Below are positions 5,931 through 64,000 of a stretch of DNA of 64,000 nucleotides, in pieces. Position numbers and translations under genes: made by a program. Location: assembly GCA_963844845.1 (NCBI GenBank), contig CAWJPW010000003.1:190391-254390 (forward strand). Direction: 5' to 3'. How positions within the stretch are numbered: the stretch's first letter is position 1; each line of letters begins with the position of its first letter. This DNA is from an uncultured Acidobacteriota bacterium. GTDB taxonomy: Bacteria; Acidobacteriota; Thermoanaerobaculia; Thermoanaerobaculales; Sulfomarinibacteraceae. The notes below the pieces were generated by a model, which was not told the origin of the DNA, searched no databases, and was given only the letters and a program-made list of their open reading frames with translations.

Positions 5931-6228
5931 CGCGGTCCCGGACCCCGTGCCGGCTCCTGATGCTCCCGGCACCGGCTCCCGGGCGTCGGCCTTGCCGACG
6001 CCCGTCGGCGCGTTCGCGAAGGGGGCGACGGCAGAAGCTGCCTGGCGGTAACATAGCCCCCTTCGCGCCCGCGCCGAGTCGCCTCCCTGGTCGTTTGGGG
6101 CCACTGCTCCGGGCGCAAAGGGCCGTGGGAGCCCCCCCGGACACTTTTCCCCGGAGCGCGCTGCAAACGAGGAGGTTGTTGGGGAAAAGTGTTCGGGACG
6201 GCACTCCCGCCGGAGGGCACCTGCTCCG
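5931..6228 (+). repeat. Solo copy (B0) of the ~285-bp hairpin-rich 'B' repeat module also present twice at 20589-21400
   Basis: Direct alignment by eye. gtgccggctcctgatgctccc..cgcgttcgcgaagggggcgacg..cccccttcgcgcc..ccggacac..aacgaggagg..aaaagtgt.cggg..ccgccggagggcac.tgctccg matches 20589-20872 and 21117-21400. Confidence 0.85.
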
Positions 6229-6334
6229 CACGGAACTCTGCACCACCGTCGCGCTCGCGTGCGGGACCGTTCTCGCTCCTGTCGTCTTCTCCCATTCGTA
6301 GGCACTCCTCACACCACCCCCGTATACTTGTCGG

Positions 6335-7438
6335 ATGCTGCGCTTCGATCTTTCCCAGCTGCTTCTCGGGATGGCCTCGGTGTCCTCCCGGATCGAGGAC
6401 CTGGTGTTCACCGTCGGCCGGCCTCCCCTGGTGCGCATCGACGGCGAGATCCGCCCGGTAAAGATGGGCTCGTTGGATCGGTTGGCGCCGTTCCATACCG
6501 AGATGGTGGTGCTGCACCTCCTGAGCGCGGCCCCCCAGGCTGCCGCCCGACTGCGCGAGCGCGGCGCTGCCAGCTTCATCTACCCGATCCCCGGGAAATC
6601 ACGCTTCCGTGCCTCTATCTTCAGCCAGCGCGGCAGCTTCGGGGCGGTACTGCGGGCCATCGCCGACGGTGTTCCAACCCTTGCCGACCTGGGGCTCGTG
6701 AAAGAGTTCGAGGACGTGCTCGAGGAGCGGGCCGGCATCATCCTGGTGAACGGTCCCGCCGGCTCGGGGCGGTCCACAACCATGGCGGCGGTACTCAACG
6801 AGCTCAACCAGACTCGTGCCTGCCACATCGTCACGGTGGAAGACCCCATCGAGTTCCTCCACCGTCACGCCCGTGCCGTGGTGCATCAGCGTGAGGTCGG
6901 GCAGGACACTCCCAGCGCGGCCGCCGGGCTCGAGGATGCGCTCTACCAGGGAGCCCAGGTCATCGTGCTGTCCGAGGTGACCGACCGGGATGCCGCGGCC
7001 CTCGCTCTGGAGGCGGCGGAGGCCGGCCATCTCGTGGTGACCTCGGTGCGGGGGCTCGACACGGGCACCGCGCTGGAGCGGTTCGTCGGGTTCTTCGAAG
7101 GCGAGGAGCAGGAGCGCGCCTGCCGGCACCTCACCTTCTCGCTCAAGCTGTGTGTCACCCAGCGACTCGTACCCAAGATTGGTGGCGGCCGGGTGCTCGC
7201 CGCCGAGATCTGGCGCAGCCTGCCCACGACCCGCGAGCTTCTCCAGAACGGACAGCTCGCCTCCCAGGTGATCGCTGACCTGTTGCGCGACGCCAGCGCC
7301 TTTGGATGCTGCCCCCTCGACCTGTCGCTGGAGCGGCTGGTGCGTGAGGGAGGGGTGGAGGCTGGGGCGGCGCTGGCCGAAGCCGTGGCGCCGCGTCAGC
7401 TGGAGCTGCGCCTCATGGGTCTCGAGGGGATGAGCTGA
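6335..7438 (+). CDS. PilT/PilU-family (type IV pilus retraction-type) hexameric ATPase homolog with degenerate catalytic motifs
   Basis: Collinear with PilT. It has the Asp box IVTVEDPIEF. Walker A is GPAGSGRST (Arg where the P-loop Lys is expected; codon 6770-6772). Walker B region is VIVLSEVTD. His-box region is AGHLVVTSVRG instead of GHLVxxTLHT. The GGGRVLAAEIW tail is present. Confidence 0.8.
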   Translation: MLRFDLSQLLLGMASVSSRIEDLVFTVGRPPLVRIDGEIRPVKMGSLDRLAPFHTEMVVLHLLSAAPQAAARLRERGAASFIYPIPGKSRFRASIFSQRGSFGAVLRAIADGVPTLADLGLVKEFEDVLEERAGIILVNGPAGSGRSTTMAAVLNELNQTRACHIVTVEDPIEFLHRHARAVVHQREVGQDTPSAAAGLEDALYQGAQVIVLSEVTDRDAAALALEAAEAGHLVVTSVRGLDTGTALERFVGFFEGEEQERACRHLTFSLKLCVTQRLVPKIGGGRVLAAEIWRSLPTTRELLQNGQLASQVIADLLRDASAFGCCPLDLSLERLVREGGVEAGAALAEAVAPRQLELRLMGLEGMS

Positions 7439-16373: not shown

Positions 16374-17266
16374 GCCCGGCCGAGACCGCCGCGTGGCTGC
16401 CCGGCGCCGACCTCGACGCCGGCCGCTGGGGCGAGCTGGCCCGGCCGGTGGTGGAGCGTGCCGCCCGCGCCCACGCCGCCGGCGTCATGCCGCACGCGCT
16501 CCTGCTGGTGGGCCCGCCCCACCTGGGACGGGAGCTGGCGGCGGTGGAGCTGGCGGCGCTCCTCACCTGCCCCGAGCGCGCCGGCACCGGCTGCTCGTGC
16601 GCCAGCTGCCAACGGGTGCGCCGCGGCCTCCACCCTGACGTGCAGCTGGTGAGCCCGGCTGCCTCCATCATCACCATCGCCCAGATCCGCGAGGTGGTGG
16701 TCGCCGCCCCCGGGCGACCCTACGAGGGCGTCGGCCGGGTTTGGATCCTGGAAGGCGCCGAGGCCGGTCAGCTGGGGCGCGAGGCGGCCAACGCCTTCCT
16801 CAAGACCCTCGAGGAGCCGGCCTCCCACGTTCACTTCATCCTCCTGGCGGGCAACCCCGATGCGGTCCTCCCCACCGTGCGCTCGCGCTGTCAGCAGCTG
16901 GTGCTGCCCGGCCCCCTGGCCGCCGCCCGCGTCCTCGGCGAGGAGGTGGCGGCGCCCGGCCTCGCCGGCGCCGTCCTCGCCGGCCGCGACGTGGTCGAGG
17001 CGGTGGCAGTGGCGCAAAGCGCGCTTTCCGGCGGCGAGGTGCTCCAGCTGGTGCGGGCCGCCCGCGCCCTGGGCGACCTCCCGGACGGCTATCAGGCGGC
17101 GGCGGCGGCCGCCCTCGGGCTCGCCGCCGAGGACGATGCGGTGGCCCCGGAGCTCACCGTCCTCGCGGGCGAGCTGCTCGCCGCCGAGGGCCGCGCCCGC
17201 GCCCTCAACCTCTCGGCCGAGCGGCAGATCCTCGCCTGCCTCCTGAGCTGGCACACGCGGCGGTGA
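16370..17266 (+). CDS. holB: DNA polymerase III subunit delta'
   Basis: HALLLVGPPHLGRE, Cys cluster C..GCSCASCQRV, FLKTLEEPASHVHFIL, and TVRSRCQ sensor motif; 4-nt overlap with tmk. Confidence 0.88.
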   Translation: MSPAETAAWLPGADLDAGRWGELARPVVERAARAHAAGVMPHALLLVGPPHLGRELAAVELAALLTCPERAGTGCSCASCQRVRRGLHPDVQLVSPAASIITIAQIREVVVAAPGRPYEGVGRVWILEGAEAGQLGREAANAFLKTLEEPASHVHFILLAGNPDAVLPTVRSRCQQLVLPGPLAAARVLGEEVAAPGLAGAVLAGRDVVEAVAVAQSALSGGEVLQLVRAARALGDLPDGYQAAAAAALGLAAEDDAVAPELTVLAGELLAAEGRARALNLSAERQILACLLSWHTRR

Positions 17267-17271
17267 GCGGG

Positions 17272-18099
17272 ATGGCGCCGGGACGCGGGCTGACGCGGTG
17301 GGTGGGGGAGGGTCGCTTTGCGTTGCTGGGAATGGTCCACCTCGAGCCGCTGCCCGGGAGCCCCCGCTGGGGCGGCACGATGACGGCGGTGGTCGAAGCG
17401 GCCCGGCGCGACGCCCGGATCCTCCGCGACGCCGGCTTCGCCGGGGTGATCGTCGAGAACTTCGGTGACGCGCCCTTCGAGCCTGGCGCGCTGCCCCCCG
17501 ACACGGTGGCGGCGCTGACGGTGTGCGCCGGGGCGGTGGCCGAGGAGCTCGCCGGCGCCGGCATGCTGCTGGGGGTCAACGCCCTGCGCAACGACGCCGC
17601 GGCGGCGCTCGGGATCGCGGTGGCGGTGGGGGCGGACCTGATCCGGGTGAACGTCCACGCCGGCGCCATGTGGACGGACCAGGGGCTGATCACGGGTCGG
17701 GCCCACGACACCCTGCGCCGGCGGCGGCTGCTGGGCGCCGAGGTGGCGATCCTCGCCGATGTGCTGGTGAAGCACGCCGAGCCGCCGGCACCGGTGGACC
17801 CGGCGGCCGCGGCCCGCGAGCTGGTGGGGCGCGCCCTGGCCGACGGCCTGGTGGTTACCGGCCGCGCCACCGGCTCAGCGGTCGATTTCGCACGCCTCGA
17901 GGCAGTGGCGGCAGCGGTGCCGGGTACGCCGGTGCTTGTGGGCTCGGGCGTCAACGCCGAGAGCCTTACCCAGCTGGTTGGCTGTGCCGGCGGCGCCATC
18001 GTCGGCACCTGGCTCAAGGTCGGCGGCGACGTCACCGCCCCGGTGGACCCGGAGCGTGCCCGCGCCCTGGTCGCCGCGCGCGACCAGCTCCGAGGCTGA
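17272..18099 (+). CDS. BtpA/SgcQ-family TIM-barrel protein
   Basis: LLGMVHLEPLPGSPRWGG N-terminal signature and size ~275 aa. Start is ATG 17272, 6 nt after the holB stop. Confidence 0.7.
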   Translation: MAPGRGLTRWVGEGRFALLGMVHLEPLPGSPRWGGTMTAVVEAARRDARILRDAGFAGVIVENFGDAPFEPGALPPDTVAALTVCAGAVAEELAGAGMLLGVNALRNDAAAALGIAVAVGADLIRVNVHAGAMWTDQGLITGRAHDTLRRRRLLGAEVAILADVLVKHAEPPAPVDPAAAARELVGRALADGLVVTGRATGSAVDFARLEAVAAAVPGTPVLVGSGVNAESLTQLVGCAGGAIVGTWLKVGGDVTAPVDPERARALVAARDQLRG

Positions 18100-18290
18100 G
18101 TCCCGGTCGGCATCCCGGGGACTCACTCCGGACGACGGCTCCCGGCATCCGGTCGCTGGGGGAGAAGAAAACGCAAAGACGTCAAGGCGCGAAGCCGCCA
18201 CCCACCCGGCCAAGACGACATCCACGTGCAGAGCCGCTCTCCGATCGAGGTCGTTGCACGTGACACCGTCGCGGAGCGGTGCCGGGGCGC

Positions 18291-19022: not shown

Positions 19023-19264
19023 CCTCCACCTCCCGTGACGCTCGGCGAAGCGATCACGAAGAACAGCACGAGAGGACACATGCGCTGGGCAGGACTTCGG
19101 CCTCGCCTGGTCACCCGGGCCTGTGAGAATCTCATCTCGAAGACCAAATCAAGAGTGGCATCTCAGAGGTGCAGGCCGACGCTACAGAACGAAAAGTCAG
19201 CTGGAGCGATCGCGGCGGAGGCGCTACCCTGAGAGCGTCCGAGCCCGCGAATGGAGGGAAGAGC

Positions 19265-20344
19265 ATGCGCAGAACGATCATCCTCGTTGCGATCGTGGCC
19301 ATCGTGGTCGCCGTCGCCGGCACCGCCCTGGCCGGTGAGCCGGACACCGCGGCGCAGCTGAAGCAGCTGCAGCAGGCCAACGAGAGCCTCAACCACCGCC
19401 TCGACCAGCTCGCCAAGGGGATCGACGACGTGCTCTGGTTCGACCGGGTGGGCGACGTGGCGGTGGTGGACAAGATCCGCATCTACGGCCCGCCCCGCGC
19501 CAACGTACCGAACCCCGACGCCATCGGCGCCACCAACCACCTCAAGTTCTACGCCTACGTGTTTACCCCGCGCGAGGACTTCGGCGGCGCCAAGCTGCCG
19601 CTCCTGCTGCTGCCCCACGGCGGGGTGCACGGCGACTTCACCACCTACTACGCCCACATCGTGCGCGAGCTCGTGGCCCAGGGCTACGTGGTGGTGGCGC
19701 CAGAGTACCGCGGCTCCACCGGCTACGGCGAGGGGATGTACAAGGATATCGACTACGGCGGCCGCGAGGTCGGCGACGTGCTGGCCGCGCGCGACTGGGC
19801 GGTAGCCAACCACCCGCGGGTGGATCCCGAGCGGGTCGGGCTCATCGGCTGGAGCCACGGCGGCCTCATCACCCTCATGAGCCTCATGGACCATCCCGAC
19901 AAGTACGTGTGCGGCTTCGCCGGCGTGCCGGTGTCCGACCTCGTGATGCGCATGGGCTACTGGGGCCCCGACTACCAGAAGTACTACGACGCGCCCTACC
20001 ACATCGGCCAGACGCCGGCGGAGAACCTCGAGGCCTACAAGGGGCGTTCGCCGGTGTGGAACGTGGACAAGCTGAAGAGGCCGGTGCGCATCCACACCAA
20101 CGTGCACGACGAGGACGTCAACTACATCGAGGTCCAGCACCTGATCCAGGCGCTCAAGGCGGCGGGCAAGAAGTTCGAGTACGAGGTCTCGGACGTGCCC
20201 GGCGGGCACAGCTTCGACCGCCTCGACACCGCCGAGGCGTGGGGCTACCGCAAGAAGGCGTACGCGTTCCTGGCGCGCTACCTCAAGCCGCCGCGGCCGG
20301 ACATCGAGCTCGGCGTGAGCGAAGAGGGCGTGGCGGCGCCGTAG
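19265..20344 (+). CDS. S9-family (prolyl oligopeptidase / dipeptidyl-peptidase type) alpha/beta-hydrolase peptidase
   Basis: Start ATG 19265 after GGAGGGAAGAG. N-terminal TM/signal segment. Nucleophile elbow GWSHGG. PEYRGSTGYG; C-terminal D..H (VHDEDVN.., GGHSF). Confidence 0.85.
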   Translation: MRRTIILVAIVAIVVAVAGTALAGEPDTAAQLKQLQQANESLNHRLDQLAKGIDDVLWFDRVGDVAVVDKIRIYGPPRANVPNPDAIGATNHLKFYAYVFTPREDFGGAKLPLLLLPHGGVHGDFTTYYAHIVRELVAQGYVVVAPEYRGSTGYGEGMYKDIDYGGREVGDVLAARDWAVANHPRVDPERVGLIGWSHGGLITLMSLMDHPDKYVCGFAGVPVSDLVMRMGYWGPDYQKYYDAPYHIGQTPAENLEAYKGRSPVWNVDKLKRPVRIHTNVHDEDVNYIEVQHLIQALKAAGKKFEYEVSDVPGGHSFDRLDTAEAWGYRKKAYAFLARYLKPPRPDIELGVSEEGVAAP

Positions 20345-20346
20345 GT

Positions 20347-21600
20347 GCGGCCTCGACCCCGGCAGACGCAGATCCGGCAGAGGGAGGGGACGTGGAGGCG
20401 CGAGGCCTCTTCGCGCCCCCATTGTCTCTCCAGAGCACGTGGGAACCCCTGCCGGACGGCGTAGGTACCCGAACGAAGCTGCGCCAGCGAACGCGCTCGT
20501 GGCGCGCGTAGGACGCGCGCCTACAAGGCCATGGGATTGCATCACCTGCCGCTGCGCCCGGCCCGTGACGCTCCAGGTCCCGGCCAGCGTGCCGGCTGCT
20601 GATGCTCCCAACCCCGGCTCCCGGGCGGCGGCGTTGCCGCCGCCCGTCGGCGCGTTCGCGAAGGGGGCGACGACGGAGGCTGCCTGACGGCAACGCGGCC
20701 CCCTTCGCGCCCTGCGCCGAGTCGCCTGCCCGGTTGTTCGGGGCCACTACTCCGGGCGCCAAGGGCCGTGGGAGCCCCCCCGGACACTGTTTCCGCGATC
20801 GCGCTACGAACGAGGAGGTCGTTCGGGAAAAGTGTCCGGGACGGCACGCCCGCCGGAGGGCACGTGCTCCGGGGCGGCCGCGGCCTCGGCAGACGCAGAT
20901 CCGGCAGAGGGAGGGGACGTGGAGGCGCGAGGCCTCTTCGCGCCCCCACTGCAGCTTCAGAGCAGGTGGGAAACCCCGCCGGACGGCGAAGGTGCCCGAA
21001 CGAAGCTGCGCCAGCGAACGCGCTCGTGGCGCGCGAAGGTCGCGCGCCTACAACGCCATGGGATTGCATCACACGCTGCTACGCCCGGGCCGCGACGGTT
21101 CCCGCGGCCGGCCGGCGTGCCGGCTCCTGATGCTCCCAACCCCGGCTCCCGGGCGGCGGCGTTGCCGCCGCCCGTCGGCGCGTTCGCGAAGGGGGCGTCG
21201 GCGGAGGCTGCCTGACGGCAACGCGGCCCCCTTCGCGCCCTGCGCCGAGTCGCCTGCCTGGTGGTTTGGGGCCAGTACTCTGAATGCCAAGGGCCGTGAG
21301 AGCCCCCCCGGACACTGTTTCCGCGATCGCGCTACAAACGAGGAGGCTGTTCAGGAAAAGTGTCCGGGACGGCACGTCCGCCGGAGGGCATGTGCTCCGG
21401 GGCATCCCCCGCAGACGCACATGCGGTAGGGGGGAGGGGGCGTGTAGGCGCGAAGCCTCTTCGCGCCCCCACCGCCGCTTCAGAGCACGTGGGAACCCCT
21501 GCCGGACGGCCCTAGGTACCCGAACGGATCTCCTCCACCTAACGCGTTCGTGGCGCGCGAAGGTCGCGCGCCTACAAGGAATCCATCGCGCCGAGGTTGT
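20347..21600 (+). repeat. Tandem composite repeat: [A1-B1][A2-B2][A3], period ~527/522 bp, hairpin-rich, apparently non-coding
   Basis: ggcagacgcag(a/c) recurs at 20361, 20888 and ~21410. A modules: 20347-20588, 20878-21116, ~21405-21600. B modules: 20589-20872 and 21117-21400. The first 62 nt of A1 and A2 are identical. The block starts 3 nt after the peptidase stop codon. Confidence 0.9.
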
Positions 21601-21603
21601 GAG

Positions 21604-22333
21604 GGCACGCCGCCGTGGCGCAGCCACGGCCGGACGCGCACTGGTCGCCGGCGGATGCGTGCATCCGGCCGGCGGCCGGGGCGTGGCCGGGTGGCCGCGA
21701 AGCGGCCGGCGTGCCCCGGAGGAACCCCGGCCCTTCGGGCCTCCGCTTGCTCAGGATGACAGGTGATGGTTGGAGCGCCGTTCTCCGTCGCCGTAGGCGA
21801 CGGCACCGGGTGGGCGGGTGGGACACGGCGTCGACGAGGGGGACGGCGTCGCCTTCGTCGCGAGGGCCGCGAGGTGGCGTTCCCCGTGGCGGCGCAGCCG
21901 CCGCGGGGGGCGCCGCATCGCGGGCCGCAGCAGAAGGCGCTCGAGCCGTCCCCCGGCGGGACGCAGCTTCGCTGCGTTCCGGCCGCCGTCAGGCGGCAGA
22001 CGCTTCTATGGCGCTTGCCGAGCCCACGAGTCGCGCCGCCGTCGGTTCTCTGGGTGCGATTCGCGACCGAGGCGAGGAGGCATTGGCCTCGTGGCCATGC
22101 CGACGAAGCCGACCGAGCGAAGCGCGGCCAGAGGGCCGGCGCCGGCGCGACCCCTACATTTCAGAGAGAGCGGGCTTCCCCTATCCTCCCGGAGCATGCT
22201 CCCGGGCGTACCGGGCCGCCGGGGCACGCCGCCGTGGCGCAGCCACGGCCGGACGCGAGGGAGGGACCCGGCGCGCGCTGGCGTGCGCTCGGGGCCCGAC
22301 CGAGTGGCCGTAGGCCGCGAAGCGGCCGGTGTG
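21604..22333 (+). repeat. Mosaic repeat block D1 - C1 - D2: D modules at 21604-21713 and 22223-22333 flank the 394-bp C1 module (21802-22195)
   Basis: ggcacgccgccgtggcgcagccacggccggacgcg and ggccgcgaagcggccgg(c/t)gtg each occur twice, 619 bp apart. C1 matches the reverse complement of 63624-64000. Confidence 0.85.
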
Positions 22334-22353
22334 TACCGGTGGCGAGCCTCTTG

Positions 22354-22920
22354 CTACAGAGAATCTCCCGGGCGGTCGACGTCGACCTCGCCGCCCGGGA
22401 GCGGGACGACGACAACGCGGCTCGGGTCGCGGCGGAGGACGGTTCGGGCGCCGGTGTCTCCCTTTACCGCCAGGAGTTCGGCGAAGAGGGCGCGGTCGAG
22501 CACCGCCGGGACGCCGACGACGCCGGCGTACGCCGAGGCGGCGGCGGGCAGGGTGCTCGCCGCGTGCGCGGCGAGGAGGCGGCGGAGGTGGTCCGCGGTG
22601 ACCGCCGGTTGGTCGCACACCATGAGTAGGGCCGCGCCGGCGCCCTCCGGCACCGCGGCGATGCCTGCTCGCAGCGAGGCGCTCATGCCCTCCTCCCAGT
22701 CGCCGGCCGTCACCACCCGCACCGCGAGGTCGTCCACCTCGGCGGCGAGGCGGTCGGCGTCGTGGCCCAGCACCACCAGCACCGGGTCGCAGCCGGCGGC
22801 GATAGCCGCCTCGGCGGCGCGGCGCATGAGGCTCTCGCCGCCCACCCTTTCGAGCTGCTTGGGCCGGCCGAGGCGCCGGGAGGCCCCGGCGGCGAGGACC
22901 ACCGCCGCCGTCGCGCTCAT
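22354..22920 (-). CDS. MobA/MocA-like nucleotidyltransferase (molybdenum cofactor cytidylyl/guanylyl-transferase family)
   Basis: N-terminal AVVLAAGASRRLGRPKQL signature and size 188 aa; 4-nt overlap with the upstream XdhC gene. Confidence 0.8.
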   Translation of the reverse strand: MSATAAVVLAAGASRRLGRPKQLERVGGESLMRRAAEAAIAAGCDPVLVVLGHDADRLAAEVDDLAVRVVTAGDWEEGMSASLRAGIAAVPEGAGAALLMVCDQPAVTADHLRRLLAAHAASTLPAAASAYAGVVGVPAVLDRALFAELLAVKGDTGARTVLRRDPSRVVVVPLPGGEVDVDRPGDSL

Positions 22921-24065
22921 GGGCGGCCTGCCGCCGCGGTCGTGCGCGGGTGGATGGCCGCGTCGCGCTCGCGGAGCGGCCCCCCGGACCGTTTCGTGAG
23001 CACCGCCTGGACCTCGGCGATGACGGCGACGGCGATCTCCGCCGCCGTCTCTGCGCCGATGTCGAGCCCGATGGGCCCGTAGAGTCGCTCGAGCTGCCCC
23101 AGGGTGGGCTCGAAGCCCTCCTCGGCGAGATCCTTGAGGAGTGCATCTCGTCGGCGACGAGGCCCGATGAGGCCTACGTAGAAGGCGGGGGAAGGCAGCA
23201 GCATCCGCAGCAGCTCGCCGTCGTGGCGGTAGCTGTGGGTGAGCACGACCGCCGCAGTGCGGGGTCCGATGGGGACCCGCCCCGGCAGCTCGGCCGGCTC
23301 GGTGAGGAGCACCGCATGGGCGGCCGGGAATCGCTCGGAGAGTGCGAAGGCGGGGCGGTGGTCGGCCACGGTAACCCGCCAGCCGAGCCCGGCGGCGAGC
23401 TCCACCAGCGGCGTGGCGTCGGCGCCGGCGCCGATGACCAGAAGCTCCACGGGCGGCTGGATCAGCTCGAGAAAGACCCTGACCTCACCATCCGGAACCG
23501 GGTAGGTGCGCGCCTGCGACCCGGCACCGCCGAGGACCTCGGCGGCCGTGGCCAGGACGGCAGCGCTGAGGGAGGGATCCCCCAGCTCGTCGATCACCGC
23601 CCGGCTTCCGCTCGTCACCAGGTGCTGGGCCTGCAGCACCGGCCCGGCCTGCGGGGCCTCGACCACCGTGGCGAGGACGGCGGGGCGGTCCGCGTCGGCG
23701 GCAGCGCCGGCGGCGGTGAGCGCCGGCGGAGGGCCGTCCGAGGGCAGCGGTTCAAGGACGATCTCCACCACCCCGTTGCAGCCCAGCCCGAGCCCCCATA
23801 CCAGGTCGTCGGGAGCCGTGGTGTCGTAGACAACCCGCTCCGGGTGGCCGCTCGCGAGGACCCGGCGGGCCCGTTCCATCAGGTCGGTGTCGGCGCAGCC
23901 GCCGCCCACCATCCCCCAGCTGGCGCCGTCCTCGGCGACGACCATGCGGGCGCCGGCACGGCGGTAGGTGGACCCACGGGTCGCCACCAGCGTGGCGAGG
24001 ACCCCGCGGCGGCCGCTGACGGTCAGCTGCGCACAGGCGGCGAGGGCGTCGGCCAGGTCCTTCAT
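22917..24065 (-). CDS. XdhC/CoxI-family molybdoenzyme maturation protein
   Basis: N-terminal XdhC_CoxI-like region (GVLATLVATRGSTYRRAGARMVV) and C-terminal Rossmann-like LLVIGAGADATPLVELAAGLGWRVTVADHR..GPIGLDIGAETAAEIAVAV. Confidence 0.85.
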   Translation of the reverse strand: MKDLADALAACAQLTVSGRRGVLATLVATRGSTYRRAGARMVVAEDGASWGMVGGGCADTDLMERARRVLASGHPERVVYDTTAPDDLVWGLGLGCNGVVEIVLEPLPSDGPPPALTAAGAAADADRPAVLATVVEAPQAGPVLQAQHLVTSGSRAVIDELGDPSLSAAVLATAAEVLGGAGSQARTYPVPDGEVRVFLELIQPPVELLVIGAGADATPLVELAAGLGWRVTVADHRPAFALSERFPAAHAVLLTEPAELPGRVPIGPRTAAVVLTHSYRHDGELLRMLLPSPAFYVGLIGPRRRRDALLKDLAEEGFEPTLGQLERLYGPIGLDIGAETAAEIAVAVIAEVQAVLTKRSGGPLRERDAAIHPRTTAAAGRP

Positions 24066-24091
24066 GGTAGCCTCCTCCGGCGAGTATAGCG

Positions 24092-25003
24092 GTGGGGAGG
24101 ATCGGGGTGCCTCACGACAGTCGCGATCGCGGAATCGGAGACCAGGATGAGCCGGTGAGTGGTCCCGGCCGGCTCTGTCGGGACTGGGGCGGTGCCGGGC
24201 CGATGCTGCACCTCGCCCACGGCAACGGCTTTCCGCCCGGGACCTACCGCCAGCTTGCCGAGGACCTTCGCCCTGACTGGCATCCTGTCGCCCTGTGCAC
24301 GCCGCCGCTGCGCCCGGGCTGCAGTCCCGCTGCGATGAGGAGCTGGCGCGACCTTGCCGTCGATCTCGAGGACGGGTTGCGGGCGCTGGAAGCGGGGCCG
24401 GTGGTCGGTCTCGGGCACAGCGTGGGCGCGGTGGCGACCCTCCTGGTGGCGGCGCGATCCCCGGAGCTTTTCCGTGCGCTGGTGCTGGTGGACCCGGTGC
24501 TGTTCACCGGACCGCGGGCCAGGCTCTGGGGAGTGATGAAGACACTCGGGCTGGGACACCGCTTCCACCTTGCGCGCGCCGCTGCGGGTCGCCGGGAGGT
24601 TTGGGAGGGGCGTGCGCAGGTCCATGAGGCCTATGCGGGCAAGCCGCTCTTCGCCGTCTGGGCGCCCGACGTCCTCGACGACTACCTCGACGCTGGTTTG
24701 GTCACGGACGAGAACGGCGGAGTCCGCCTCCGCTACCCCACCGCCTGGGAGGAGCGCATCTTCGTCACCACCCCCCACGACGTGTGGTCCGAGGTGCGCC
24801 GCCTCGCGGTGCCCACCCTGGTGGTGCGCGGCGCCGCCTCCGACACCTTCACACCGCAGGCGGCGGCGCGCCTCACCCGGGAGCTGCCGGCCGCAACCAT
24901 GGTGGAGGTGCCGGGGACCTCACACCTGCTGCCCATGGAGCGGCCGCACGATGTGGCGGAGGTGGCGCGCCGCTTCCTTGCCGGTCACAGTGCCGGAAGC
25001 TGA
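24092..25003 (+). CDS. Alpha/beta-fold hydrolase
   Basis: HLAHGNGF oxyanion-region motif, nucleophile elbow GLGHSVGA, and C-terminal GTSHLLPMERP. Start is uncertain (ATG 24092 or in-frame GTG 24155). Confidence 0.8.
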   Translation: MGRIGVPHDSRDRGIGDQDEPVSGPGRLCRDWGGAGPMLHLAHGNGFPPGTYRQLAEDLRPDWHPVALCTPPLRPGCSPAAMRSWRDLAVDLEDGLRALEAGPVVGLGHSVGAVATLLVAARSPELFRALVLVDPVLFTGPRARLWGVMKTLGLGHRFHLARAAAGRREVWEGRAQVHEAYAGKPLFAVWAPDVLDDYLDAGLVTDENGGVRLRYPTAWEERIFVTTPHDVWSEVRRLAVPTLVVRGAASDTFTPQAAARLTRELPAATMVEVPGTSHLLPMERPHDVAEVARRFLAGHSAGS

Positions 25004-25018
25004 GGTACAATCCCGCTC

Positions 25019-25402
25019 ATGCACGTTGATGTACGCAAGGTCGAGGACGTGATCATCGTGGACCTCAGCGGCCGCCTCATCGCCGGTGTGGGCGATGTGC
25101 TGCTGCGTGATGTCATGAACGAGCTGCTGGCCGAGGACTGGAAGAAGATCCTCCTCAACCTCGGCGACGTCACCATCATCGACAGCTCCGGTATCGGCGA
25201 GGTGGTGGCGAGCTGGAAGATCGGCAAGAGCTTCGGAAGCCGGGTGTGGATCCTCCGGCCCGGCGACCGAGTGCGGCACAGCTTGCACCTCAGCCAGATC
25301 CTCCCCCTGCTGCGCGTTTTCGAGGACGAGGCTCAGGCCATTGCCGCCTTCGCCTCCGAGGACGCCGGCACCGAGGCCTCTGCTGCGCCGGGCGGAGACT
25401 GA
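25019..25402 (+). CDS. STAS-domain protein (anti-sigma-factor antagonist, SpoIIAA-like)
   Basis: VIIVDLSGRLIAG..KKILLNLGDVTIIDSSGIGEVV..LHLSQILPLLRVFEDE; size 127 aa. Confidence 0.85.
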   Translation: MHVDVRKVEDVIIVDLSGRLIAGVGDVLLRDVMNELLAEDWKKILLNLGDVTIIDSSGIGEVVASWKIGKSFGSRVWILRPGDRVRHSLHLSQILPLLRVFEDEAQAIAAFASEDAGTEASAAPGGD

Positions 25403-25891
25403 GTGATGGCGGCTGCCGGCGAGGGGGCTCCCGCCGGGAACCTCCAGGACCGTTTCGCCCCGGCGTCCGTCTGTTTCGGTTGCGGCCCGGCCAACGCCAA
25501 GGGTTTGCACATCAAGAGTGTGCCCGGCGACGGCGAGGTAGTCTGCACGTTCCGGCCTGCCAAGCACCACGAGGCATTCGACGGCGCGCTCAACGGCGGC
25601 ATCATCGGCACCCTCTTCGACTGCCACTGCAACTGGACGGCCGCCTACCACCTGATGCAGCGGAACGGCTTCGAAGGGCCGCCCTGTACGGTCACTGCGG
25701 AGTACTCGGTGAGCCTCAGGCGACCGACCCCCTCGGGTGGGCCGGTGACGGTGCGGGCGCGGGTCGTGGAGTCGAGCCCCGAGCGTGCGGTCGTGGAAGC
25801 GACGCTCGAAGCCGGCGGCAAGGTCACCGCGACCGGCCGCGGCGTCTTCGTCGCCGTCGGCGAGGGGCATCCCGCGTTCCATCGCTGGTAG
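25403..25891 (+). CDS. Hotdog-fold (PaaI-like) thioesterase with N-terminal CxxC motif
   Basis: CFGCGPANAKGLHI followed by HHEAFDGALNGGIIGTLFDCH, typical of PaaI/4HBT-type thioesterases. Confidence 0.7.
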   Translation: MMAAAGEGAPAGNLQDRFAPASVCFGCGPANAKGLHIKSVPGDGEVVCTFRPAKHHEAFDGALNGGIIGTLFDCHCNWTAAYHLMQRNGFEGPPCTVTAEYSVSLRRPTPSGGPVTVRARVVESSPERAVVEATLEAGGKVTATGRGVFVAVGEGHPAFHRW

Positions 25892-33140: not shown

Positions 33141-33668
33141 TCAGCTGCGCGAGGGGTAGAGCCCCTCCAGGGCAATGATGAAGTTGAGGGTCAGGTAGGG
33201 CTGCAGGTTGTTGTGCGCCTGGCTACCGCCGGTGTTGGGCAGCGAGCGGGCGTCCATGTCGACCAGGTTGGCGGAGGTGCTGCTCTGGTATGGCGCGCCG
33301 CCGCGGGCGCGGGCCAACGTCACCGCAGAGGTCAGCGAGCCCTGCTCGCCGTTCTCGGCGGTCGCCCGCAGCGTGTGGGTATGGTTGGGCATCTGGTCCT
33401 CGCTGAGGGTGACGGTCTCGACGCCGCCGTGCTCTCCCAGGCGGCGGTCGGTGAGGCCCGGTCCGCGCCCGGGATGCATGGGGGCACGGCCTTGGAGGTT
33501 GGGCAGGCCGAAGGTCGTGCGGCCATCGCCGCCGTAGGTGGTCCCGACGAGGGAGAACAGCGCGGTGTTCTGTGAGACGGGGAGCAGCTGGCCGTTGCAG
33601 AAGGCCCAGCTGCGGGGCGCGAAGTTGCCGGCGAAGATGCGGATCTCGGCGACGAAAGGCTCGCTCAT
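33141..33668 (-). CDS. Phage-tail-collar-domain protein (MdpB-like), paralog 3 of 3
   Basis: MSEPFVAEIRIFAGNFAPRSWAFCNGQLLPVSQNTALFSLVGTTYGGDGRTTFGLPNLQGRAP..NNLQPYLTLNFIIALEGLYPSR is the collar-domain signature. Confidence 0.9.
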   Translation of the reverse strand: MSEPFVAEIRIFAGNFAPRSWAFCNGQLLPVSQNTALFSLVGTTYGGDGRTTFGLPNLQGRAPMHPGRGPGLTDRRLGEHGGVETVTLSEDQMPNHTHTLRATAENGEQGSLTSAVTLARARGGAPYQSSTSANLVDMDARSLPNTGGSQAHNNLQPYLTLNFIIALEGLYPSRS

Positions 33669-33676
33669 GGCGTCTC

Positions 33677-34195
33677 CTAGTGCCGCGACGGGTAGATGCC
33701 GACGAGCGCAACGATGAAGTGAACGCAGAGGTACGGCATCAGGTTGGTGTGCGACCGGCTCCCTCCCACCGCGGCGATGGCGGTGGCCGCCATGTTGGTG
33801 TCGGGCGGACCGTTGTAGTACGGCTCCAGCACCGTCGAGCCGGCGAGCACATCGCCGGCGGGGTTGGCGTCGGAGGCGTTGTCGGAGGATCCGGTGAGGG
33901 GGTGGCCGTGGGACGGGAGCTGGTTGACGGTGAGCGTCACCTTCTCGCTGCCCCCCTGGCTGCCCAGCCGGCGCTGGCTCAGCCCCGGGCCCTGCCCGGC
34001 GTGGACCGGTACCCTCCCACGCAGGTCGGGCAGGCCGAAGGTCGTCCGTCCGTCACCGCCGTAAATGGTCCCGAGAAGGGAGAAGAGAGCGTCGTTCTGG
34101 GATACCGCCAGCAGCTGACCGTCGCAGAACGCCCAGCTCCGCGGCGCGAAGTTCCCGGCGAACATGCGGATCTCGCCGACAAACGGCTCGGACAT
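33677..34195 (-). CDS. Phage-tail-collar-domain protein (MdpB-like), paralog 2 of 3
   Basis: Start ATG at 34195 is preceded by GAGGAGG. MSEPFVGEIRMFAGNFAPRSWAFCDGQLLAVSQNDALFSLLGTIYGGDGRTTFGLPDLRGRVP..TNLMPYLCVHFIVALVGIYPSR. Confidence 0.9.
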   Translation of the reverse strand: MSEPFVGEIRMFAGNFAPRSWAFCDGQLLAVSQNDALFSLLGTIYGGDGRTTFGLPDLRGRVPVHAGQGPGLSQRRLGSQGGSEKVTLTVNQLPSHGHPLTGSSDNASDANPAGDVLAGSTVLEPYYNGPPDTNMAATAIAAVGGSRSHTNLMPYLCVHFIVALVGIYPSRH

Positions 34196-34208
34196 CTCGA
34201 CCTCCTCG

Positions 34209-34712
34209 TCAGTTGCGTGAGGGGAACAGCCCCTGCAGGGCGATGCAGAAGTTGACGGCCAGGTACGGCTGCATGTTCTCGTGCGTCTGCCCGCCGCCGA
34301 CATTCGTCACCGAGCCGGCGCCCAGAGCCACCAGCGACGAGGGATACTGGCGGTAGAGGCCGCCGACCTCGCGGGCGAGTACCCGTCCGTCGGGTCGGTT
34401 GGCGTCGCCGTCGTTGCCGGAACCGCGCAGGGTGTGGGAGTGTTGCGGCATCTCGTTCGCCGCCACGGTGTGCGTCTCCTCCCCCGAGCGGCCACCCAGG
34501 GCGAACCCGAACCCGGCGTGGATCGGTACGCGGCCGCGCAGGTCGGGCAGCGCGAAGCTGGTCCGCCCGTCGCCGCCATAGGTGGTGCCGAGCAGGGAGT
34601 AGAGGCTCTGGTTCTGGTTGATGGGCAGGATCTGCCCGTCGCAGAAGGCCCAGCCGCGCGGCGCGAAGTTGAAGCCCACGATTCGGATCTCCGCGAGGAA
34701 TGGCTCTGACAC
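34209..34712 (-). CDS. Phage-tail-collar-domain protein (MdpB-like), paralog 1 of 3
   Basis: MSEPFLAEIRIVGFNFAPRGWAFCDGQILPINQNQSLYSLLGTTYGGDGRTSFALPDLRGRVP..ENMQPYLAVNFCIALQGLFPSR. Confidence 0.9.
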   Translation of the reverse strand: MSEPFLAEIRIVGFNFAPRGWAFCDGQILPINQNQSLYSLLGTTYGGDGRTSFALPDLRGRVPIHAGFGFALGGRSGEETHTVAANEMPQHSHTLRGSGNDGDANRPDGRVLAREVGGLYRQYPSSLVALGAGSVTNVGGGQTHENMQPYLAVNFCIALQGLFPSRN

Positions 34713-34783: not shown

Positions 34784-37700
34784 TTACGGCTGCGGGCAGG
34801 CGCCGGCGTTGAAGTTGATCGTTCCCGCCACGCTCACCGCGACCCCGCCGTTGATCGTGTCGAGGCGGTTGGGGTCCGCCGATCCGGCGGGGTCGAGCTG
34901 ACGCACGTTGTGGGTTCCCGCCGTCTGGCGGACCCGGATCGGAGTCGGGCTGTAGATGTTGGTCAGCGTGTTGTTGGCGATGTCCGAGCACAGGGTGGCG
35001 CCGGCGATGATGACCTGACAGTTGATGCCGCGGTCGTCACGGATCTGGTCGAGGGTATTGTTGGTGATGGTGGCGTTGGTGGTGCCGCCTCCCACCGCCT
35101 CGTTGACGTACACGCCCTCGAAGCCGCTGCCAGTCCCGTCGCCGATCTCCCGGATGGTGTTGCCGGTGACGAGCACGGTCGTCGTTCCGGTGCCCTCGTT
35201 GCTGATCCTCACGCCCTCGCCGAGCAGGCACCCCGAGCCCGTCACGCCGCTGCTGCCGATTACGTTGTTCTCGATGTGGCCCGACATCGTGCCAGTGTGA
35301 CTGGCATTGGTGAACACGTTGATCGCGTTCGAGCGGCTGCTCGTGATCACCGGGTTGTCGTGGATGTTGAACGTCATGCTCCCTGCGCCCGACGCCGAGA
35401 CGCCGACACCGACGTTGTTGCTCTGGAAGGTGCTGCTCGTGACCTCCACGCTCATGGTGCCGCCGGCGGTGTCAGCCAAGATGCCGTTGGCGGTGAGAGC
35501 TCCGGGGGTGATGCTGCCGGTGAAGGTGCTGCCCGACACGTTGAGCGTCATGTCGGCGGTGGCTGCGCCGGAGAAGAGCAGGTCGTGCCCGGCGACGGTC
35601 GACGCCCCGCTGTTCTGCAGGGTACTGCCGGCGACGGTCATGGTGAGGGGAGTGGCCAGCGTGTTCGCCACCTTGATGTTGTTCTCGAAGGAGTTGCTCA
35701 CCGTGGTGCCGGTGAGGGTCACCGCGCCCGTGGCCTCCTCCAGCAGAATGCCGGCCTCGTCGGGCGATACCTGGTCGGCGTTGCCGGCGAGCGAGCAGTA
35801 GCTCAGCGTCAGACCAGCCACGTTGCTGCCGTAGACCCCGTTGCGGCTGTTGTTGTTGATGTTCATGCGCGCCAGGGTGACGTTGGCGGCGTTGCTGAGC
35901 ATCACGCCATCCACGTTACCCGTCGTGTTGGCGATGGTGCCGCCGGTGCCGTTGGCGGCGGCGGCGCCATCGCCGGTCACCGAAAACGGCCCCGTCGTGC
36001 CGGTGTTGGTGAGGGTGAGGCCGGGGGTGGTTCCCCCGCTCGACGACAGGCTCTCGAAGGTCACGCCGCTGGCGCCGATGGTGGTGCCGGTGATGCTCAC
36101 CGCGGCCCCGGTGGTGGCGGTGACGGTGTTGCCGGTGCCGGTGACGATCACGGTGCCGCCGCCGGAGGCGGTGAAGCCGGCCGCGGTGGTGGACGTGACG
36201 GCGAGGCCGCCGCCGGTGAAGCTCATGGTGTGGCCGGTGTTGCCGGTGAGGGTGACCCCCGGGTGTCCGGGGGTGCTGATGGTCTTGGTCGAGCCGCTGA
36301 AGGTGGTCGAGCCGCCGCTGTTGCCGTTCACCACGACACCGCTTCCGCTTCCGCCGGTGACAGCGAGCGTCCCGAAGGTCCGCACGCCCGCCGAGTTGTT
36401 CTGCAGCGAGATCCCGTCGGTGCCGCCGGTCACCTGCGTGTTGCCGAACGCCACGGTGCCGGTGGAGGTGTCCACCAGGATCCGCTGTGTGCCGGTGCCC
36501 GTCACCTGAGTGGTGCCCGACTGGGAGAACGTGGCGTTTGCACTCGTCGCGGTGACCGCGATCCCCTGGAGCGTGGGATTGGTCACCGTGGTGCCCCCGC
36601 TCACCGTGAGGCTCCCCGCGACACCGTCGAGGGTGAGACCGGCGCCGGGGCTCGAGGCGCTCGACAGGTTGGAGAAAGCGGTGCCGATGGCGGCGTTGAC
36701 GACGTGCAGCGCCTCACCGCTCGCAGTGGTGATCGCGCCACCCGTGGTCTGGAGGCGGAAGCCGCTCCCGGTCGCGGGGTTGAAGCTGGCGTCGGGGGTG
36801 GAGACCAGCAGGCCCGTGCCCGACTGGTTGCCGATGGTGAGGGTGTCGAGCTGCAGGTCGCCGCGCACGGCCGCGAGGTGGAGCCCGTCGCCCTGGATGT
36901 CGCCCGGTGAGGAGGTGCTTCCCACGGACAGGGCGCCCCCGGCTACCGTATCGAAGGTCGGGGTGGCCGGGTCCGCGTCGAACACGACGTCGTCCAGCAC
37001 CAACCCGCCGCCGCCCCCTGCCGCGCTGGCCGTGAGGGCGGCGAGGTCGGTGACGGCGACCGCGCCGGTGGTGCCGGTCCCGTCCACCACCAGGCCGGCG
37101 CCGCTGCCGCCGGCGAGGGCACAGCTTGTGAGCCCGACGTCCAGGCTCGCGGCGTCGGTGGCGGCGATGGCGACGGCGTGGCGGTCACCGGAGATGGTGA
37201 GGCCGCGCACGGCCATCCCGTTGCGGTCGCCGTTGGCGGTGCTCGCCGTCACGGTGACGCCGTCGCCACCGGCGTTCGTGTTTGCGATCCGCGGCCGGGT
37301 GCCGGCCGTGACGAGGGTGAGCGGCGTGCCGTTCACCGTGGCCACCAGCGGGACGCCCTGGCCGATGAGGTGCTGGCCGTCGAGCAGGGCGACGCCCTGA
37401 TCCTGGCCGACGCTCGTGCCGTCACCGGTGAACACGTAGAGGATCTCACCTGCGGACGAGGACGAGGCCGCCGCCGCCAGGGTGTCGAAGGGCGTCGTCG
37501 AGGTGCCGTCGCCGCCGGCGGCCTCGTCGTTCTTCACGTACCAGATCATCTGCTCGATCACCACGCTGACGGTGCCGGCGACGGTGTTGGTGCCGTCGCT
37601 GAGGGCGTAGGTGAAGGTGTCGGGGTCGGCAATCGTCGCGTCGACTCCGGGCGGCGGCGTGTACACGAAGGACCCGTTCGCCGCAATGTCGACGGTTCCG

Positions 37701-63557: not shown

Positions 63558-63591
63558 GAGCGCCCCGGGCAACCGGGGCGCTCTTCTTTGG
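63558..63591 (+). terminator. Rho-independent terminator after etfA
   Basis: Stem gagcgccccgg / ccggggcgctc with loop gcaa, followed by ttctttgg, 27 nt after the stop codon. Confidence 0.75.
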
Positions 63592-63623
63592 ATTCTGCGG
63601 GTGGTGCACGGCCGCCGGGGCAC

Positions 63624-64000
63624 GCTCCGGGAGGGTAGGGGAAACCGCTCTCTCTGAAATGTATGGGTCGCGCCGGCGCCGGCCCTCTGGCCGCGCTTCG
63701 CTTGGTCGCCTTCGTCGGCATGACCACGAGGTCAGTGCCTCCTCGGCTCGGTCGCGAATCGCACCCAGGGACCTCTGGTGGAGCGACTCGTGCCGTTGCT
63801 GAACGCCATGGGGAGAGGTGCCAGGTTGAAACCTGGCACCGTCCGCCGGGGGACGGCTCGAGCGCCTTCTGCTACGGCCCGCGATGCGGCGCCCCCCGCG
63901 GCGGCTGCGCCACCATGGGGAACGCCACCTCGCGGCCCTCGCGACGAAGGCGACGCCGTCCCCCTCGTCGACGCCATGTCCCACCCACCCACCCGGTGCC
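63624..64000 (-). repeat. C2: inverted copy of repeat module C1 (21802-22195), truncated by the window edge
   Basis: The reverse complement of 64000-63843 matches 21802-21959 with only a handful of substitutions (ggcaccgggtggg.gggtgggaca.ggcgtcgacgagggggacggcgtcgccttcgtcgcgagggccgcgaggtggcg...). The reverse complement of 63768-63624 matches 22050-22195. The centre differs. Confidence 0.88.

Follow-up and report, generated by a model that had tools for sequence, protein, structure and literature searches.

A non-coding block of 2009 nt, located at positions 20345-22353 of a 64-kb window of bacterial DNA (the window being the whole stretch that was analyzed), completely fills the spacer that separates an S9 peptidase gene from a MobA/MocA-like gene convergent with it. 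This block is probably one cluster of a previously undescribed and apparently genome-specific family of dispersed, hairpin-rich non-coding modules, the nature of which is likely selfish or near-neutral. The modules, which possess discrete ends, are found in intergenic DNA only, either singly or linked to one another with A-B-(D)-L-C-D as the preferred order. By analogy, the family appears to be organized like the mosaics formed by repetitive extragenic palindromes (REPs) and bacterial interspersed mosaic elements (BIMEs), by BOX and by RIME, with a module scale that is around ten times larger (120-400 nt). The selfish-repeat interpretation follows from the dispersal of the modules, their discreteness, the existence of solo copies, the variable duplication and the restriction to intergenic DNA, and likewise from a divergence of 5-25% among copies, from palindromes without overall strand bias and from the lack of detection elsewhere.

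A gene-free spacer filled by repeat modules

The coding status of the block was derived from frame plots of the GC content at third codon positions (GC3), a discriminator of coding and non-coding DNA which is very sharp in this sequence of 73% GC. No periodicity was found from ~20330 to 22350, whereas periodicity is strong on either side. Among the 53 genes called from GC3 the spacers have a median length of ~10 nt, and the 2009 nt of the block are the largest gap in the window. The repeats fill this gap completely, as the first copy of module A begins 3 nt past the peptidase stop codon and the last copy of module D, together with a remnant of module L, reaches up to the stop codon of the MobA/MocA-like gene. 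Alignments of the copies of A, B and C revealed them to be separated by 1-nt indels, and the modules were therefore concluded to be non-coding. The four longest chance open reading frames (ORFs) of the block gave no match in Pfam, so that none of the properties of a protein-coding gene or pseudogene (GC3 periodicity, an intact frame among copies, a Pfam match) was found, and the only protein "homologues" of the block ORFs among the billions of sequences searched are other read-through ORFs over the same repeats. The second-largest apparent gap of the GC3 gene map (17255-18290, 1036 nt) shows no similarity to the repeat modules; it is overlapped by an ORF (17205-18113, minus strand) without Pfam match, possibly a gene that is novel or escaped the calling, in which case the gap would not be non-coding.

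Module architecture

The layout of the block is [A B][A B][A] D L C D, whereby the limits of the modules were set by alignments among copies (Table 1). Repeat finding and BLAST identified positions 20344-21053 to be repeated at 20871-21577 with 88.5% identity, the periods being 527/528 and then 522-524. Module A measures ~170-230 nt and is composed of a ~170-nt core and a ~60-nt linker leading to B, while B, D, L and C measure ~298, ~120, ~79 and ~404 nt, respectively. Each module is characterized by its own set of hairpins. In A these are ggcgcga-ggcctct-tcgcgcc and GGCGCGCG-TAGGA-CGCGCGCC-TAC. The fold of B is multi-branched and closed by CGTGCCG...CGGCACG, and the hairpins therein are GGGCGGCGGC-GTT-GCCGCCGCCC, GCGAAGGGGGC...GCCCCCTTCGC and CCGGACACT...AGTGTCCGG, the latter enclosing a GGAGG loop. 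Module D possesses a conserved 5' arm of 36 nt and a conserved 3' arm of 30 nt, and its apex differs among copies, yet is self-complementary in each. Module L starts with the hairpin GGCCC-TTC-GGGCC, which is followed by the conserved and largely unpaired motif GCTTGCTCAGGATGAC; it invariably precedes C. At the 5' start of module C a G-quadruplex motif is found (GGGTGGGCGGGTGGG, 21808-21822), and a near-palindrome, CCCGGAGCATGCTCCCGGG, forms the end of this module. The junction that leads from the 3' end of A into D, as seen after the third A copy, is also present in one of the loci found on other contigs (P0003).

An earlier reading of the letters alone (hereafter the original prediction) had already described a gene-free convergent spacer filled by repeats, amid otherwise short spacers, and these statements were confirmed, as was the absence of a coding signal, the presence of which it had named as speaking against its view. 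The order [A1 B1][A2 B2][A3] D1-C1-D2 which it had given stands with regard to the periods, but lacks module L between D1 and C1. All hairpins it had named do occur in the sequence, the last string having been slightly mis-transcribed; it really reads cccggagcatgctcccggg and is a near-palindrome. Besides L, the original prediction had missed the two further copies within the window and the conserved order of the modules, both of which are described below.

Table 1. Modules of the repeat family and the genes next to the block; for loci on other contigs, known from spurious ORFs, the order of modules is given
Feature	Position	Strand	Description
A1	20347-20575	+	core ~20361-20528, A-to-B linker 20529-20575; identity 90% to A2, 86% to A3
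B1	20576-20873	+	~298 nt; identity 93% to B2, 87.5% to B3
A2	20874-21102	+	second tandem unit, period 527
B2	21103-21401	+	period 528
A3	21402-21581	+	core only; followed by ~20 nt of unique junction (21582-21602), then D1 rather than B
D1	21603-21722	+	single near-perfect hairpin of ~120 nt
L	21723-21801	+	79-nt conserved linker module between D1 and C1
C1	21802-22205	+	~404 nt; most strongly structured module
D2	22206-22353	+	hairpin 22222-22342 and truncated remnant of the L start (GAGCCTCTTGCT)
B3	5934-6228	+	solo B, found by BLAST, 87.5% to B1; between RsmD-like gene (stop 5891) and pilT (start 6335)
C2	63615-64000	-	found by BLAST, 85% identity; clipped by the window end; just past the etfA terminator
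P0002			A-B-L-C-D
P0003			B-B-..-D-..-C
P0004			(A 3' end)-B-L-C
P0005			split B ... L
P0006			..-C-D
P0007			D-..-C
P0008			B-L-..; large internal deletions
P0009			diverged B
Peptidase_S9 gene	19169-20344	+	Pfam; real product 359 aa
MobA/MocA-like NTP_transf_3 gene	22354-22920	-	Pfam
XdhC gene	22917-24065	-	Pfam; adjoins the MobA/MocA-like gene

Dispersed copies of the modules

Within the window two further copies were identified, B3 and C2, both residing in non-coding DNA; the ends of B3 match the B boundaries of the block. Profile searches of the window with nhmmer revealed no copies beyond the block, B3 and C2. Copies on other contigs were traced through spurious ORFs. A chance ORF of the block (20602-21429, 275 aa), used as a protein query, returned itself on a contig of 886,246 bp and four partial matches on contigs of 967,976 bp, 534,217 bp (two matches) and 329,790 bp. 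Subsequently, a phmmer search with P0002 against 1.84 billion protein representatives yielded six proteins only, four of which were new and locate to contigs of 71,349, 254,651, 412,277 and 1,024,467 bp. Thus eight additional loci on seven other large contigs are known from translations of spurious ORFs. These "proteins" (P0001-P0009) are rich in Arg, Gly, Pro and Ala, measure 207-390 aa and figure as annotated proteins in collections derived from NCBI and ENA, being in reality spurious read-through products. As all of them are singletons in these collections, the contigs concerned probably belong to one long-read metagenome-assembled genome (MAG).

For comparison at the nucleotide level the spurious ORFs were back-translated to IUPAC DNA, in which every third base is unknown, and aligned to the modules. 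They were found to tile cleanly on the modules, with 77-95% identity at known bases; L was recovered in P0002, P0004, P0005 and P0008 at 88-100% identity (known bases). In total, the family comprises at least 11 loci on at least eight contigs, with identities of 75-95% among copies and the directional order A-B-(D)-L-C-D, which is kept across at least nine loci while the numbers of A, B and D vary. The 3' end of B is identical irrespective of whether A, L or unique DNA follows, which identifies the modules as discrete units. Next to these, P0005 (back-translated positions 112-294 and 362-601) and P0003 (595-744) contain stretches that resemble none of A, B, L, C or D, one of which, ~180 nt in P0005, splits a copy of B. 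This hints at additional types of module, or at nested insertions, of which the window holds no example.

Given that the window seems to be part of an 886-kb contig of a long-read MAG and that short-read contigs do not span the block, the tandem and mosaic arrangement might have been created by long-read mis-assembly. This was considered highly improbable. As the tandem units are only 88.5% identical, they are not an assembler duplication; their differences of 11.5%, plus indels, keep the stems paired, and the same modules recur in other arrangements on at least seven other contigs. Moreover, short-read contigs of the Logan collection, which derive from an independent run (ERR11523667), agree with the window at 100% over the flanks, up to and into the modules, and end inside them. 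One of these (L001) corresponds to 22300-25630 at 100% and breaks within D2, another one (L002) breaks within B3, and breaks of this kind are the expected effect of a multi-copy repeat on de Bruijn assembly.

Folding, stem conservation and strand

Folding z-scores were determined relative to dinucleotide shuffles on the module strand, with 24 coding segments of 290 nt from the same window serving as controls (z -0.37 +/- 0.86, minimum -2.67). The scores obtained for B (-2.3 to -5.9), for L together with C (-8.1 and -6.9 in two copies) and for D (-3.8 to -5.3) lie far outside these coding controls. Module A is marginal when considered as a whole (-1.0 to -2.1, with A1 at -2.1; opposite strand -1.5 to -2.8). 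The D1 hairpin folds with -98.6 kcal/mol (z -6.1).

Conservation of the stems was assessed across all copies, whereby only unambiguous bases were taken from the back-translated ones and the 3' partner, slid by 1-3 columns, served as control. Of the 34 cells in which both sides of a predicted pair had changed, 30 retained pairing (A 4/5, B 9/10, C 11/12, D 6/7), as compared to 27 of 91 (~30%) when the partners were slid (controls made for B, C and D); these cells are not independent events, and the structures were predicted from the reference copy. Under the same proviso, the percentage paired amounts to 88-92% versus 27-57% in the slid controls. In B, substitutions are less frequent at paired (0.122) than at unpaired positions (0.208). 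Compensatory changes of this kind can also be yielded without selection by quasi-palindrome correction.

With respect to the strand, one-sided transitions at Watson-Crick pairs of the reference leave G.U and A.C pairs in a ratio of 24:21 on the plus strand and 24:29 on the minus strand. The absence of an overall asymmetry is what is expected for DNA palindromes. The individual modules differ in this regard: one-sided changes in D favor the plus strand (5:0 cells, G.U over A.C), the fold of C is better by 25-38 kcal/mol on the module strand in both copies and has a much lower z-score there (C1 -7.7 on plus and -5.1 on minus; C2 -6.9 on the module strand and -3.3 on the opposite one), and B has no consistent preference, its opposite strand folding equally well or better in two of three copies. 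The tight G-quadruplex motif (GGGnGGGnGGGTGGG, GGGnGGGnGGGnGGG) occurs just twice in the 64-kb window with both strands counted, at 21808-21822 (plus) and at 63980-63994 (minus; GGGTGGGTGGGTGGG), and each occurrence is the 5' start of a C copy. Across seven C copies the G-tracts are invariant and the loop bases variable. In the minimum-free-energy fold the G-quadruplex stretch pairs with the C-rich 3' end of C, involving many G.U pairs.

These properties bear on the idea that the modules are paralogous genes of structured non-coding RNAs (ncRNAs), whereby L-C-D, and perhaps A-B, would be transcribed from the module plus strand into RNAs of ~400-1200 nt. The very strong fold of L+C, the one-sidedness of C and D, the strand-specific and conserved G-quadruplex at the 5' end of C, the conserved unpaired motif of L, the compensatory changes and the conserved module order all fit such genes. 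Nevertheless, this idea was judged rather unlikely, and the same reserve applies to its corollary, according to which the dispersed copies would either be paralogues of such genes or represent a mobile RNA element, for instance a retroelement without ORF. The block holds no sigma-70-like promoter and no intrinsic terminator, and Rfam searches over the whole window gave nothing at gathering score; at E<=1 the only match in the block region is narK (22.2 bits as compared to a gathering score of 43.2), which is at chance level and spans the D2 flank and the 3' end of the MobA/MocA-like gene. A sigma-54 promoter was considered for L and for the D2 flank (TGGCGAGCCTCTTGCT; site at 22340, within the same stretch as the narK match) and dismissed, as such sites are no more frequent than in shuffled sequence. 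Further points speaking against ncRNA genes are the missing overall G.U/A.C asymmetry, the strand indifference of B, the occurrence of modules that are single, duplicated or internally deleted (P0008), which is unusual for functional RNA genes, the location of C2 antisense to its neighbor gene and past the terminator of that gene, and the absence of the family from the nearest relatives sampled. Quite improbable is the more specific proposal of a multi-copy, strand-specifically folded large ncRNA or ORF-less mobile RNA element that is made up of L-C-D (~600 nt) or A-B-L-C-D (~1.2 kb); on that improbable premise, the RNA would have its functional parts in the conserved G-quadruplex at the 5' end, in the motif of L that stays single-stranded and in the D hairpin at the terminus, and the DNA repeats would be the genes or insertions of the RNA.

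Other candidates did not hold either. No tRNAs were found; group II introns, omega RNAs, retrons and similar elements were dismissed for lack of any Rfam signal; and the parS-like CACGTG cores in A and B were found upon inspection not to fit the parS consensus.

Genomic context and distribution

The window is ordinary chromosome, as it carries tmk, holB, lipA, nusB, ribH, def, dnaJ, icd, etfAB, fabF/acpP and the Mla system. All called genes were scanned against Pfam, and six are without any match. The closest PilT found anywhere is 66% identical, the named matches at ~50% being from Acidobacteriota, and the homologues of the S9 peptidase at 70-77% identity belong to MAGs of Acidobacteriota or Gemmatimonadota. 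A tblastn comparison of EtfA with plasmids was uninformative as to the taxon, its best match being to Firmicutes at 48%. Judged from these sequence similarities, the host is probably a deep, poorly sampled, Acidobacteriota-like lineage.

Three related lineages, in which the gene order downstream of pilT is kept and the upstream gene differs, allowed for a comparison of the site of B3. The spacer upstream of pilT has a length of 443 nt in the window, ~297 nt being contributed by B3, versus 89-100 nt in the three relatives. An insertion of B3 would agree with this difference, whereby the relatives offer no true empty site owing to their different upstream gene. The window and all three relatives have a CCGTATACT box in common which adjoins the pilT start (window 6318-6337; relatives L016 9985-10000, L018 1143-1158 and L020 916-931), and B3 is located upstream of this box. 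The conservation of the box in four lineages whose PilT proteins share no more than 62-66% identity points to a conserved -10 element, with a pilT leader that is very short or lacking altogether. Downstream of the S9 peptidase the relatives possess a different gene, which follows after 107-219 nt.

Beyond this genome no copy was detected at the sensitivity of each search. In ~70 kb from the nearest relatives no module-like sequence is present, and an exact 20-mer of the B core gave 13 matches in 185,579 species genomes, all of which are seed-only and none a real copy. The metagenomes of JGI yielded no copy with an exact 25-mer or with a degenerate multi-pattern scan, the 25-mer being brittle in that the B copy of P0002 has a different, still self-complementary stem at that place. 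Viral contigs likewise yielded no copy, with an exact 20-mer and in a later search.

The placement of the modules has to be considered with regard to a cis-acting function, i.e., domestication as bidirectional insulators or terminators, as stabilizers of mRNA 3' ends, or as arrays for the binding of nucleoid proteins or topoisomerase, functions of the kind that REPs and BIMEs have been proposed to have. The block fills a convergent spacer, both genes of which are without canonical terminators; modules adjoin both stop codons there, and B3 begins ~43 nt past the rsmD stop. In line with such a placement, REPs are reported to reside for the most part past the end of coding regions, where the neighboring ORFs converge or run in one direction (PMC3733652). 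A domesticated role of this kind is unlikely, as etfA has its own canonical terminator right before C2, which makes the element superfluous there, and as 2 kb by far exceed the needs of termination, with relatives having spacers of 90-220 nt at comparable genes. The copy number is moreover apparently low, with a dozen or so loci found. An insulator or terminator role may be compatible with either the selfish-repeat or the RNA interpretation. The etfA terminator is a textbook intrinsic one (63560-63592), reading GAGCGCCCCGG-GCAA-CCGGGGCGCTC and then TTCTTTGG. It documents that the organism uses U-tract terminators, yet none flanks the 2-kb block on either side.

Some further features of the window lie apart from the repeat family. 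On the minus strand three consecutive paralogous small genes (33141-34712), each with a Phage Tail Collar domain (PF07484), are located directly downstream, and on the same strand, of a gene for a 1727-aa protein with cadherin/Big_9 repeats (34784-39967), within which 309-bp tandem repeats occur at 37920-38743. At the start of the window, which clips the gene, a thermolysin-like M4 peptidase is encoded (3-1934, plus) with three tandem PPC pre-peptidase C-terminal domains that are specified by a 345-bp DNA tandem repeat (563-1560). An FHA-domain sigma-54 activator (46857-48692, plus) and a TPR Ser/Thr kinase (49847-52360, minus) are found near an exosortase fragment. This set of genes might be taken for Myxococcota-like, but the closest protein matches speak for Acidobacteriota instead.

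Origin and significance of the repeat family

Taking the modules as selfish or near-neutral repeats, a model for their spread can be suggested. Copies would reach new intergenic sites via an activity encoded elsewhere in the genome, and clusters would grow by insertion beside existing copies and by unequal recombination, the latter among the processes that may have generated the 527-bp tandem [A B][A B][A]. Hairpins would be kept by quasi-palindrome correction or, alternatively, because recognition and propagation act on the single strand in its folded form. As a likely side effect, the cluster would block read-through between the two convergent genes, which lack canonical terminators.

Several observations weigh against this interpretation. 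None of the 53 called genes of the window encodes a transposase, RAYT (the Y1 HUH transposase associated with REPs), integrase or reverse transcriptase according to Pfam. No terminal inverted repeats link the ends of any module or composite, and no direct repeat, as expected from a target-site duplication, flanks the solo B3, the power to detect such duplications being low with a single solo copy. A true empty site is missing as well, given that the nearest sampled relatives share 62-77% protein identity and differ in the gene order flanking the element. The conserved order, the one-strand-biased fold of C and D and the conserved unpaired L motif would suit a transcribed RNA equally well. Most of the additional copies are known by back-translation only, with every third base unknown, and since the tested structures were predicted from the reference copy, the percentage paired is inflated.

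As to the original prediction, its suggestion of a lineage-specific family of structured repeats was strengthened by the extra copies in the window, by at least eight further loci on seven contigs, by compensatory stems and by nothing comparable having been found elsewhere in the searches; the modules are hence not unique to the locus, which it had named as an observation that would speak against its view. Its statement that the window holds no RAYT or other transposase agrees with the Pfam scan. The array of structured ncRNA genes, which it had offered as well, fared less clearly: Rfam family, promoter, terminator and an overall strand asymmetry of substitutions are lacking, while in every copy of C and D one strand yields the better fold.

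The host lineage is deep, uncultured and probably Acidobacteriota-like, and has no close sequenced relatives. If the modules are mobile, they point to a mobilizing activity that would accept long substrates with multiple hairpins; in the case of transcription, C and D would represent a new large structured RNA. Repeats of this type break short-read assemblies and create spurious "proteins" of 200-400 aa in public databases, and these in turn can be used for tracing a repeat family where the DNA is inaccessible.

Comparison with known systems

Large structured RNAs such as GOLLD, ROOL, OLE and HEARO/omega RNA resemble the composites described here with regard to their size of 400-1200 nt, very negative z-scores and compensatory changes. 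The repeats differ from these in lacking an Rfam match and in being multi-copy, with modules that are shuffled, duplicated and truncated; a protein gene such as IscB or TnpB is not associated with them. Miniature inverted-repeat transposable elements (MITEs) and other small repeat families, among them Correia/NEMIS, ERIC and RIME, are likewise non-autonomous, dispersed, intergenic, structured and nestable or clustered (PMC3184786), but terminal inverted repeats or target-site duplications, by which MITEs are recognized, were found for no module or composite.

The BOX elements of Streptococcus pneumoniae (boxA-boxB(n)-boxC) are built from distinct modules in fixed order with a variable internal number, and they are intergenic, have a stable predicted fold, no coding capacity and no identified dedicated transposase (PMC3049150), all of which is reminiscent of the family reported here. 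BOX modules, however, measure ~45-60 nt, are AT-rich, belong to a Firmicute and exist in more than 100 copies (PMC3049150), whereas the modules described here are 5-8 times that size, comprise five types and form a composite of ~1.2 kb. The shared fixed order is a likeness of architecture only, and there is no sequence relationship to BOX.

The comparison with REPs and BIMEs, which the original prediction had drawn, is apt, with the caveat of modules that are ~10 times larger. A REP is an imperfect palindrome of 20-40 bp with a stem of 5-13 bp (PMC3733652, Table 1), carrying at one end a GTAG (or CGTC) tetranucleotide outside the base pairing (PMC3733652). A RAYT gene is typically flanked by the repeats, and REPINs are mobilized by RAYT (PMC3333891, PMC3116915, PMC3733652). 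The modules of the block, with 120-404 nt and many hairpins each instead of a single palindrome of 20-40 nt, exceed the size of a REP, and only sub-elements such as the A hairpin (9-bp stem, 5-nt loop) are REP-sized. This conserved A hairpin ends in ...CGCGCGCC-TAC in all copies and reads on the opposite strand as GTAG plus a GC-rich stem, as does a REP; its CTAC pairs with a 5' GTGG in the fold, so that the tag is base-paired and not free. GTAG/CTAC is not enriched in the block (3-4 per kb versus 2-3 per kb elsewhere), and neither is CGTC. D2 has a GTAG beside GGCCGC-GAA-GCGGCC, which D1 lacks. Further differences are the number of loci, about a dozen as compared to hundreds, the window without RAYT, and the directional order A-B-L-C-D in place of the alternating orientation of BIMEs. 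The mosaic cluster thus corresponds to a BIME by architecture only, its units not being REPs. Module D forms one long hairpin from two inverted arms that are conserved and a center that varies, and in this architecture it is nonetheless comparable to a REPIN or to a head-to-head dimer of REPs. Moreover, the block shares with BIMEs and REPs its intergenic location, often downstream of or between convergent genes, its lineage specificity, and its construction as a GC-rich, palindrome-built mosaic of few unit types and linkers (PMC3333891, PMC3116915, PMC3733652). Proteobacteria and Firmicutes are the main groups from which intergenic mosaic repeats are known, the units measuring 20-60 nt; the same logic of discrete modules, fixed order, clustering and compensatory stems is found here at around ten times that module size.

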